Source: Phycisphaeraceae bacterium
Lineage (GTDB): Bacteria > Planctomycetota > Phycisphaerae > Phycisphaerales > Phycisphaeraceae
DNA: 64,000 bases
Assembly (NCBI GenBank): GCA_963674705.1
Contig: OY771506.1
Location: 4,128,001-4,192,000 of the forward strand
Direction: 5' to 3'
The position numbers are program-made. This document shows positions 21,001-24,000 of this stretch, piece after piece. Each line of letters opens with the position of its first letter. Within the stretch, counting starts at the first letter, position 1.

Positions 21001-24000
21001 CGCCGGCATCCAGCAGGGGAACGACGCCCGCGACCATCTGCTGCGGCGTCTGGTCGTAGACGACGGTTGTACCTTCGAGCTTGGGCTGGCCGGCGTTGGG
21101 CTGGGCCATGATTGGCAGGTCGGTGACCTTGCGGTAGGCCTGGACGACCTTCAAAGCGTTGGGCATATCCATGCCGCTGCCGCAGTTCAAAGCGACGATA
21201 TCGACGCCTTTTTCAGCCATGAACTTCGCAGCTGACTCGGGGTCGACTCCCATCATCGTGCGCAGCGACCCGCCATCGGGTGAAACGTCATACGCCATCG
21301 ATCCGATGACGCAGGGGGCAGCGGCGCTGCGGGCAGCTTCGATGCCGATCGCCAGCTCTTCCAGCGAGGTCTGTGTCTCGACGATCACCGCATCAGCACC
21401 GGCATCGACCAGTGCCTTGGCCTGCTCGTTAAAGGCAACACGGACGTCTTCTTCCGCGACGTCGCCATAGGGCTCCATGAAGCCGCCGAACGGACCAATG
21501 TCGCCGATGACGAAGCCGCCGGTATCACCGATGGCCTTACGTGCGATTTCGACTGCGGCCTTGTTGATCTCGGGGGCTCGGTTTCCGAGATTATGACCGG
21601 CCAGCGTGATCCGGCAGCCGCCGAAGGTGTTGGTGATGATGCAGTCGGCGCCGGATTCGACGTAGCGTTTTTGTATCTGGAGGACCTTGTCCGGGTCGGT
21701 CAGGTTCCACTGCTCGCCACACTGTCCCTGGGCCAGGCCCGCAGCCATGAGTTGGGTTCCCATCGCGCCGTCACCGAGCAGAGGGCGTTGCTTGATCGCT
21801 TCGAGCAGAGTCTGTGACATGCGGATTTCCTCCGTGAATTGCTGGCACGAACAGGATTAGAATGGCCCTGGTGGGATTCGAACCCACACTGTCGCGATTT
21901 TAAGTCGCGTGCCTCTGCCGTTGGGCTACAGGGCCGACGCCGACAAGTGCTAAGTCTAACCTGAGGCGGGACCTGTCGCGAATAACCGGTGCAATACGTA
22001 TGCGGATACGCTTGTTGGCAGTTATGCGCTGATCACAACTGTGCTTACAGCGGGTCAGCATATCCGCAATCGTTGAACGGGTCCGTTTGTAACGATTATC
22101 TGCGGGCTTCTTGATTCAATATCCACCCATCTACTGGACGCCTCGCAGGGCCGGGGCAGACTTCACACATCTCTTGGCTGCACAAGCCCAGGGGATTAGT
22201 CCAGCAATAGTCGGCCGCGGCGTGTGCCAGGCCGACGGCGGGGCGGTGGGAAGAAAACAAGAGGCGGAGTAATACCATGCAGACTTGGAAGATCGCAACA
22301 GCAGTTCTGGCCGGATGCCTTGTCGGTGCGGCAAGCACACAGGCGGCGAGTATTTCGTACCCCGGCACGGTCGTGGTGCAGGATGGGTATTACGACAACG
22401 TTGTTGAAACCTCCATCACCGACACATTGCCTTTGTATGGCCCGCCAACCGCGGGTGCCGGCAACAGCCTTGTTTATCACTTCTCGAGCTTCAGCGCCTC
22501 GGCAAGCGACAGCAACTCCGACATCACATCCGGCGCGCTGGAAATGACGTTTGATGCCGATCCGGGCCAGTACATCCAGAGTTTCTCTCTGACAGAATCC
22601 GGCACGTACACGATCAGCGGAACCGGCGAAGTCACCGCCGGCGGGACGCTGACGATCCGCTACTACGACGACGTGGCCGGTGAATTTGTCACGCTGGCCG
22701 ACCCGATCGAGATGTCCGTTGCATTCCCCATGGATACGCCCGACACGAACGGCACATGGGAAGGCTTTGCGCTGATCGACCTGAATGCGTTAGGCATCCA
22801 GACCTCGCACATCATCATCGCACTGGATAACAACCTGATCGCCGGTGCTGGGGCAGGTGGCAGTGCGACGATTACGAAAGACACGATGACCATTAACCCG
22901 GTCGTTCCCGAACCGGCAAGCATGGTGTTGATGGGACTGGGTTGCTTGATGATTTTGAGGAAGCGGTAGTATCGGGTATCGGGTATCGGGTATCGGGTAT
23001 CGGGTATCGGGTATCGGGTATCGGGTATCGGGTATCGGGTATCGGGTATCGGAATGATCATATCTGTGATGTTTTCCGGCGGGATTTAAACTTGCAAAAA
23101 AACAACCGGCCGCGTGGGAGTGCGGCCGGTTGGTTTGTTTTTTAGGTTGTGTTATTCGGTTTTAGTGCTTGCCGCGCCGTAGCATGGCGAGGCCGCCGAG
23201 GCTCAGCAGCGCGAGGCTGGTGGGCTCGGGGATCAGACTTACTTCAGCCGTAGGAGGTGTGCCAGCATTCCAATTATTCAACACAGCATCCATATCAGCA
23301 AGCCCAACGATACCATCACCCGAGGCATCACCTTGTGCATGATTGGTAACCCCCACAGTCGTGTTCCAGTTTGCTAGAACAAGGTCAAGGTCATCCAATC
23401 CCACATAACCATCATGGTCCATATCCCCAGCCAGCCATGTCACGAGCTCCAAGGAATAGGTGTTGTACACCAGTTCGAGCATGGCGGAATCATCGGCTGA
23501 TATCAGCCCGCTTGCAGAAGCGAATTCGCCCGTCAAGGTCCCGGTCCACGTCAGCACCTCATAGACGTCCGGATCCGAGGTACTAGGCGTGAAGCTGCCC
23601 AAATCAATCGCCAATTCACCATCCAGATCAACATCACCATAAATATCGACATCGTCGTAGTTGTCGACGTCGTCATCTGAGTCGGCAATGGTGATTTTTA
23701 GTGTACCTGTGCTCCCCTGAGTGTAACTACGACTGTCTGTACTGCTGCCAATTGTCAGGGTCCTCGCATCAGAGCCGACAATGTCAAGTATGCCATCATT
23801 GTCAACATATACTGCTAGATCAACACCATCACCATTAACTTCGACGGTAGCTCCGCTAGCTATTGCGATCGTTCCAAGTCCTGAAAAAGATATGTATTTA
23901 CCAATCGCCAACGAATCATTTATTACCAATTCACTACCAGATGCCAGAAGGGGATTGTTGTACCTAAAAATTGTTGACGCTTCATTAAGCTCAAGTATCG

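Follow-up and report, generated by a model that had tools for sequence, protein, structure and literature searches.

A 2023 review (PMC9976931) holds that tRNA-Leu and tRNA-Ser have a long variable arm in every organism and every organelle save animal mitochondria. The stand-alone tRNA-Leu(UAA) gene in a genome of the planctomycete family Phycisphaeraceae (here G000) encodes a tRNA of only 73 nt, and so raises the questions of whether a leucine tRNA without that arm is charged and reads UUA, and of how it came to stand where related genomes carry the long form. The initial annotation had quoted the rule rightly, but the rule itself is contradicted by a chromosomal type I tRNA-Leu in Streptomyces coelicolor (PMC6614811). 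The gene was examined within a 64,000-nt stretch of the genome (the window), to which coordinates without a contig prefix refer.

The tRNA-Leu(UAA) gene and its surroundings

The gene occupies 21863..21935 on the minus strand, has no intron, does not encode CCA and is of type I, that is, without a long variable arm. ARAGORN annotates a tRNA-Leu(taa) over exactly this interval and strand, Rfam RF00005 matches over the full model without an intron (64.5 bits, E 1e-11), and the minimum-energy fold is a cloverleaf (z -2.77). All parts lie on the minus strand. The 5' strand of the acceptor stem (nt 1-7, 21929..21935) contributes to the pair G2-C71, as in most Leu(UAA) genes of the family, long and short. 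It is followed by U8, A9 and a D-arm of the short-form type (nt 8-25, 21911..21928), with G10-C25, C11-G24, C12-G23, C13.A22, A14, A15, G18, G19 and A20a, in which the U8-A14 pair is preserved. The anticodon arm (nt 27-43, 21893..21909) presents UAA at 21902-21900, and the variable loop (nt 44-48, 21888..21892) is reduced to A44 C45 A46 G47 U48; the T-arm (nt 49-65, 21871..21887) and the 3' acceptor strand (nt 66-72) with discriminator A73 at 21863 (together 21863..21870) complete the molecule. A long variable arm of 10 nt or more, the mark of class II, is absent, and the five-nucleotide loop retains nucleotide 48 in the manner of the S. coelicolor type I tRNA-Leu. A73, A15:U48, G18G19 and A20a, which make up the leucine identity set of E. 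coli (PMC9976931), are all present. The short form described by the initial annotation, with its 5-nt loop, A73 and identity bases and without an intron, is confirmed.

No consensus sigma-70 promoter was found in the 600 nt scanned, and the promoter/terminator scan was empty. Aligned over 801 nt with a contig from another study, the locus shows 54 substitutions and 5 gaps; all 40 of the substitutions listed lie outside the tRNA. The gene is real and, to judge from its sequence, very probably functional.

The tRNA inventory of the genome agrees with the earlier description of a housekeeping-type gene outside the tRNA array. No long tRNA cluster surrounds it, the closest tRNA being Ala(GGC), 2.9 kb off; the array of 30 tRNAs lies at C1:622-635 kb (G000 C1:622407-634804) and contains, as previously annotated, short Leu(CAG) (75 nt) and Leu(CAA) (74 nt) together with a long Leu(TAA) (85 nt). 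An HNH gene, an R2K-type ATP-grasp gene and tRNA-Ile(UAU) also belong to the array. The stand-alone Leu genes CAA, CAG, GAG and TAG are all long (84-86 nt), and a chromosomal, non-array short Leu(UAA) coexists in this genome with type II isoacceptors and a single LeuRS.

Upstream by 5.4 kb and on the same strand lies argJ (PF01960; 27321..28577, minus strand), which marks the locus common to the short and long alleles of the family; a homocysteine S-methyltransferase gene (PF02574; 20915..21820, minus strand) is directly downstream. Between the tRNA and argJ (22277..27114) stand three genes specific to the lineage, namely a PEP-CTERM gene, a 764-aa gene without a Pfam match and a trypsin-like gene; there is no integrase among them. 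A search for an integration scar in G000 returned no second copy of the 3' end besides the T-arms of other tRNAs, and a supposed integrase cluster proved on inspection to consist of sulfatases. The tRNA is flanked (19756-27114) by several genes of secreted type whose products end in PEP-CTERM or comparable C-terminal motifs, short tandem repeats with an 'IPDTRYP' frame occur at about 22670-22760, and a tmRNA is located at 35111-35484 (plus strand) with the tag ANDNIAGRIGFAPARMAA.

Probable charging and reading of UUA

One leuS gene in G000 passes the family cut-off (C1:2274747-2277626, 959 aa). Its leucine-specific domain (LSD) comprises 38 aa, running from Ile to Phe-Gly just before KMGKS; its length and its hydrophobic-Gly ending before the KMSKS-type motif match the residue numbers published for S. 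coelicolor, and the sequence itself is nearly identical to that of Corynebacterium LeuRS and close to that of Mycobacterium. In S. coelicolor, a chromosomal type I tRNA-Leu(CAA) with the loop ACAGC is leucylated by the single LeuRS (Fan et al. 2019, PMC6614811), with a kcat/Km of 6.25, where the type II Leu(UAA) has 14.2; its knockout failed, and five nucleotides are the minimum for its loop (PMC6614811). The 38-residue LSD (Ile696-Gly733, with L732 and G733 important) transfers charging to another Streptomyces enzyme (PMC6614811). Given these likenesses of the G000 enzyme, charging of the short tRNA is plausible by analogy.

The same paper reports that the Streptomyces type I tRNA-Leu is charged neither by E. 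coli LeuRS nor by that of S. purpurogeneiscleroticus (PMC6614811), and charging is therefore not to be assumed from identity bases alone. The earlier argument from an E. coli LeuRS that can do without the arm is accordingly incomplete, a natural type I tRNA not being leucylated by that enzyme. We considered and rejected LSD type as the cause of the short form. Families are coded here as f1 (the Phycisphaeraceae), f3, f11, f17 and so on, in a system different from that behind the f15 of the initial annotation; the Streptomyces-type LSD is common to long-form and short-form f1 genomes, and it is absent from short-form carriers in f17 (3 genomes), f11 (3 short), f20 (1 short), Nonomuraea, Arthrobacter and Acidimicrobiales. 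None of the 17 matches in a search of solved structures is a LeuRS of this subtype. In the LeuRS tree (FastTree, 86 rows), Corynebacterium and Mycobacterium nest with f1, f3 and f5, as sister to f5 (local support 99-100), and the enzymes of Nonomuraea, Arthrobacter, Acidimicrobiales and other Phycisphaerae stand apart from this group; leuS has likely undergone an old transfer between Actinomycetota and Planctomycetota.

Of the TTA codons compared in RpoB, RpoC and LeuRS, 58 of 65 in short-form genomes and 73 of 79 in long-form ones fall on conserved Leu columns, on which ground recoding of UUA is rejected. The fold of the short tRNA is 7/5, unlike the 8/4 or 9/3 by which allo-tRNAs are defined (PMC7609411). 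The previously given count of 8,934 TTA codons was not matched exactly: 2,114 long ORFs, a cruder gene set, gave 5,679 among 1,116,284 codons. That the short tRNA functions as a UUA-reading leucine adaptor is highly probable. The stand-alone gene would then supply the everyday UUA reader of the cell, and the single LeuRS would charge it with leucine as in Streptomyces, presumably reading the elbow of D-loop and T-loop together with A15:U48 in place of an arm.

Distribution and history of the short and long forms

A pattern catching either form of Leu(UAA), tried first on G000, matched in 129 of 144 family genomes. By hand count, 85 of the 129 carry the short form and 44 the long form only, or 30 against 32 at the level of genera; the earlier statement that the short form is the usual Leu(UAA) of the family holds for about two thirds of matched genomes. 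The short gene is the sole Leu(UAA) match in 77 of the 129, although long copies outside G000 that are divergent or split by an intron could escape the pattern; six of these are single-contig genomes (G055, G071, G122, G131, G132, G133). A long array-type copy accompanies the short gene in 8 of 85 short-form genomes, G000 included. Across the class, Leu(UAA) of any length was matched in 240 of 261 genomes, and the short form was found in f1 (9 of 12, plus G000), f17 (18 of 18), f11 (6 of 42), f20 (2 of 11), f3 (1 of 5) and f6 (1 of 40), with none in 18 other families. Its restriction to Phycisphaeraceae and f15, as first proposed, is too narrow. The 18 short genes of f17 have an acceptor stem of their own type, and the LeuRS domains of that family are unlike the Streptomyces type.

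The distinct family sequences from retrieved loci, 38 short and 28 long, fall into two coupled forms with no intermediate among them. C12-G23, C13, the 5-nt loop and A73 are present in all 38 short sequences and A9 in 37, and all 28 long sequences have G9, G12-C23 and a loop of 14-19 nt; stem pairing is preserved by two-sided changes across the short set. On general grounds of tRNA structure, the changed D-stem (A9, C12-G23, C13.A22) would re-form the core of a class I tRNA about a loop of 5 nt. Forms intermediate between the two would be poor substrates, to judge from Streptomyces tRNA-Leu, in which a loop swap alone left 18% and 14% of the efficiency (PMC6614811); short and long would then switch as a single unit, a mode of change that points to replacement by recombination more than to mutation step by step. 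Such coupling of D-arm and loop is not universal, since array genes of cyanobacteria combine a short loop with a class II-like D-arm.

The flanks of Leu(UAA) are poorly conserved overall, and signs of a common locus come from particular neighbours. By hand comparison, 34 of 85 short-form genomes have argJ no more than 10 kb from the gene (many of the others lying on short, split contigs), and in G105 and G049 it stands directly upstream; of the long-form genomes, 3 of 44 have it within that distance (immediately upstream in G092 and G125, 3.5 kb away in G098); ilvN follows the short gene in G033 and the long gene in G059, G060 and G078. Trees of LeuRS, of RpoB+RpoC (62 rows, 2,723 columns) and of ArgJ (27 rows) each require at least eight changes of state within the family. 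On the RpoB+RpoC tree there is one large short clade, which includes G000 and a single long member, G117, besides scattered short lineages with long sisters (G033/G059, G052/G129, G038/G062 and, in f3, G255/G235); a single short clade is rejected by the IQ-TREE AU test (p-AU 3.1e-6, on 15 rows picked after the FastTree tree was known). The six scattered short alleles of the family are 2-5 positions away from those of the main clade and 4-9 from the nearest actinobacterial gene among the matches listed, against 10-13 outside the loop from the long alleles of the family. No donor element was found beside any short allele examined. Phage-integrase genes adjoin the long Leu(UAA) in G142 (L274:4140-5471) and G020 (L016:974-2632). 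Co-transfer of argJ with the tRNA was not seen: the weakly resolved ArgJ tree keeps short and long sisters together (G126/G117, G255/G235) and still shows eight changes.

That a single allele lineage sits at the same locus on many host branches is best explained by lateral replacement in place, and this is the history towards which, from the sequences, we lean: the short form would spread among the Phycisphaerae as a whole allele, ousting the long form at the same locus. Neither such switching nor a short tRNA-Leu of Phycisphaerae or other planctomycetes came up in literature searches on short tRNA-Leu, whose coverage was partial, with most subscription papers outside it. Since the trees cannot tell gain from loss, the change counts give no direction, and this leaves some room, though less, for a single early gain, whether within the family or ahead of the parting of f1 from f3, with the patchiness due to returns of the long form or to differential loss from an ancestor with both alleles. 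All family short alleles indeed form one close lineage, argJ is linked in the main clade and in scattered short genomes alike, and the nesting of long G117 among short genomes on both the LeuRS and RpoB+RpoC trees indicates that returns to the long form occur. Against so early a date, outside f1 the order is nearly all long (short in 0 of 13 in f2, 0 of 10 in f4, 0 of 2 in f5 and 1 of 5 in f3), near-identical short alleles in f11 and f3 would need either very slow change or transfer, and no family genome showed both alleles, array-type copies aside.

Convergence, by which each short form arose from the resident long gene through arm deletion and D-stem retuning, appears improbable. It would account for the locus and the G1 G2 C3 acceptor start common to short and long genes, unlike most actinobacterial ones, and the mixed cyanobacterial genes imply that intermediates can exist; the family sequences nevertheless contain none, the scattered short alleles have in common anticodon-stem pairs that their long sisters lack, and the G-G start is frequent in viral short genes too (83 of 121 listed, a set picked with a family-like pattern). 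The last point is also why the acceptor stem was dropped as proof of a chimeric gene. Least probable of all, and hardly to be entertained, is a gene that is silent or mischarged, with UUA read by the long copy of the array or recoded. The intact-looking array Leu(UAA) of G000, the promoter scan and the rejection of a natural type I tRNA-Leu by E. coli LeuRS (PMC6614811) might be cited for it, but 77 genomes have no other Leu(UAA) match, TTA aligns with Leu, the stems are kept by compensatory change, and the contig of the other study shows no listed substitution inside the tRNA. Taken as a whole, the reading of a type I UUA reader, charged by LeuRS and spread by allele replacement in place, is in our judgement probable on sequence comparison and the Streptomyces analogy.

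A second departure in variable-arm length was observed outside the window. The stand-alone tRNA-Cys(GCA) of G000 (C1:3951808-3951891, plus strand) is 84 nt long and has a long variable arm with a 4-bp stem, a 7/5 fold and U73. A scan of 94 family genomes matched 71, of which by hand count 52 are long-armed, 15 short of the same type and 4 array-type or chance matches. Short-Leu genomes have 43 long against 6 short Cys genes and long-Leu genomes 5 against 8, in a sample with 23 genomes unmatched and with kin that are not independent; the sisters G033/G059 and G038/G045 differ in both tRNAs, and G126/G117 and G134/G030 do not. In the accessible text of PMC7609411 and among the papers listed by literature searches on long-arm tRNA-Cys, only the 8/4 selC* tRNA-Cys appeared, and nothing for Phycisphaeraceae; the long-armed tRNA-Cys is possibly more novel than the short Leu(UAA). 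We offer tentatively, and with more doubt than conviction, the wider proposal that an essential tRNA gene exists in Phycisphaerae as class I and class II alleles that have repeatedly been exchanged laterally in place across a fitness valley, that loss of the arm in Leu(UAA) may be tied to its gain in tRNA-Cys, and that both may be driven by enzymes recognising the arm, for example anticodon nucleases, toxins that target tRNA, or integrating elements.

Comparison with known short leucine tRNAs

With the short tRNA-Leu(UAA), a kind of tRNA already known is extended to a new lineage. The novelty implied by the initial annotation, and its finding of no report, fail because PMC6614811 describes the type I tRNA-Leu of S. 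coelicolor; stand-alone short Leu(UAA) genes are, moreover, common in Actinomycetota. The molecule itself is not new, and the surprise to a tRNA specialist would be moderate. What the family adds is a second phylum among the exceptions to the cytosolic rule of long-armed tRNA-Leu, and a natural experiment in which UUA would be read, in sister genera whose LeuRS enzymes are almost alike, by a short tRNA or by a long one from the same locus, while other families with the short form have a different LeuRS domain type. These matched pairs and differing LSD types make the Streptomyces model, in which a special LSD permits type I charging, directly testable. The part most worth following is the in-place switching between two coupled alleles.

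Canonical class II tRNA-Leu has A73, A15:U48, G18G19 and A20a in common with the short form, which differs in lacking the long arm and in having C12-G23, C13 and A9 in place of G12-C23, G13 and G9. The S. coelicolor type I tRNA resembles the short form in being chromosomal, accompanied by type II isoacceptors and one LeuRS, and furnished with a 5-nt loop that differs at nucleotide 48 only (ACAGC there, ACAGU here). It differs in its anticodon (CAA against UAA) and its phylum, and LSD type does not go with tRNA form in Phycisphaeraceae. The accessible text of PMC6614811 frames type I tRNA-Leu as a rarity of Streptomyces and does not describe allele switching.

Stand-alone short Leu(UAA) genes in Actinomycetota are like the present one in D-arm, 5-nt loop, A73 and single-gene setting. 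A GTDB scan gave at least 120 loci; among the 120 matches listed, 101 are from Actinomycetota, 7 from Planctomycetota and 12 from others (mostly in clusters), and each of the 101 is the only tRNA within its 0.4-2 kb of sequence. Nocardia, Mycobacterium, Corynebacterium, Arthrobacter, Microbacterium, Bifidobacterium and Acidimicrobiales are represented, and in an even draw of 136 Actinomycetota genomes Leu(UAA) was matched in 105 and short in 22 (G397 and G444 of these being unpublished). The nearest actinobacterial gene among the matches listed has 6 differences from the window gene outside the loop, and the acceptor start is G-C in 95 of the 101 listed, against G1 G2 C3 in the family. No paper on these stand-alone genes was found in the literature searches on short tRNA-Leu.

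Short leucine tRNAs are also known from phages and tRNA arrays. At least 120 viral loci with short Leu(UAA) were returned by an IMG/VR scan, and cyanophages P-SSM7 and S-CREM1 are among the phages with short tRNA-Leu; the Leu(UAA) of P-SSM7, an accessory gene there, has 73 nt and 90% identity to the window gene over 62 nt. PMC6582537 refers to a short Leu(TAG) in an array. Four short Leu genes, 75-78 nt in length, belong to the Anabaena trn operon; of the 26 tRNAs there, 23 are charged in vivo (PMC8421152), from which it follows that at least one short Leu is charged. The short Leu genes of phages and arrays are accessory, whereas the gene described here stands alone and is, in most family genomes, the sole Leu(UAA) match.
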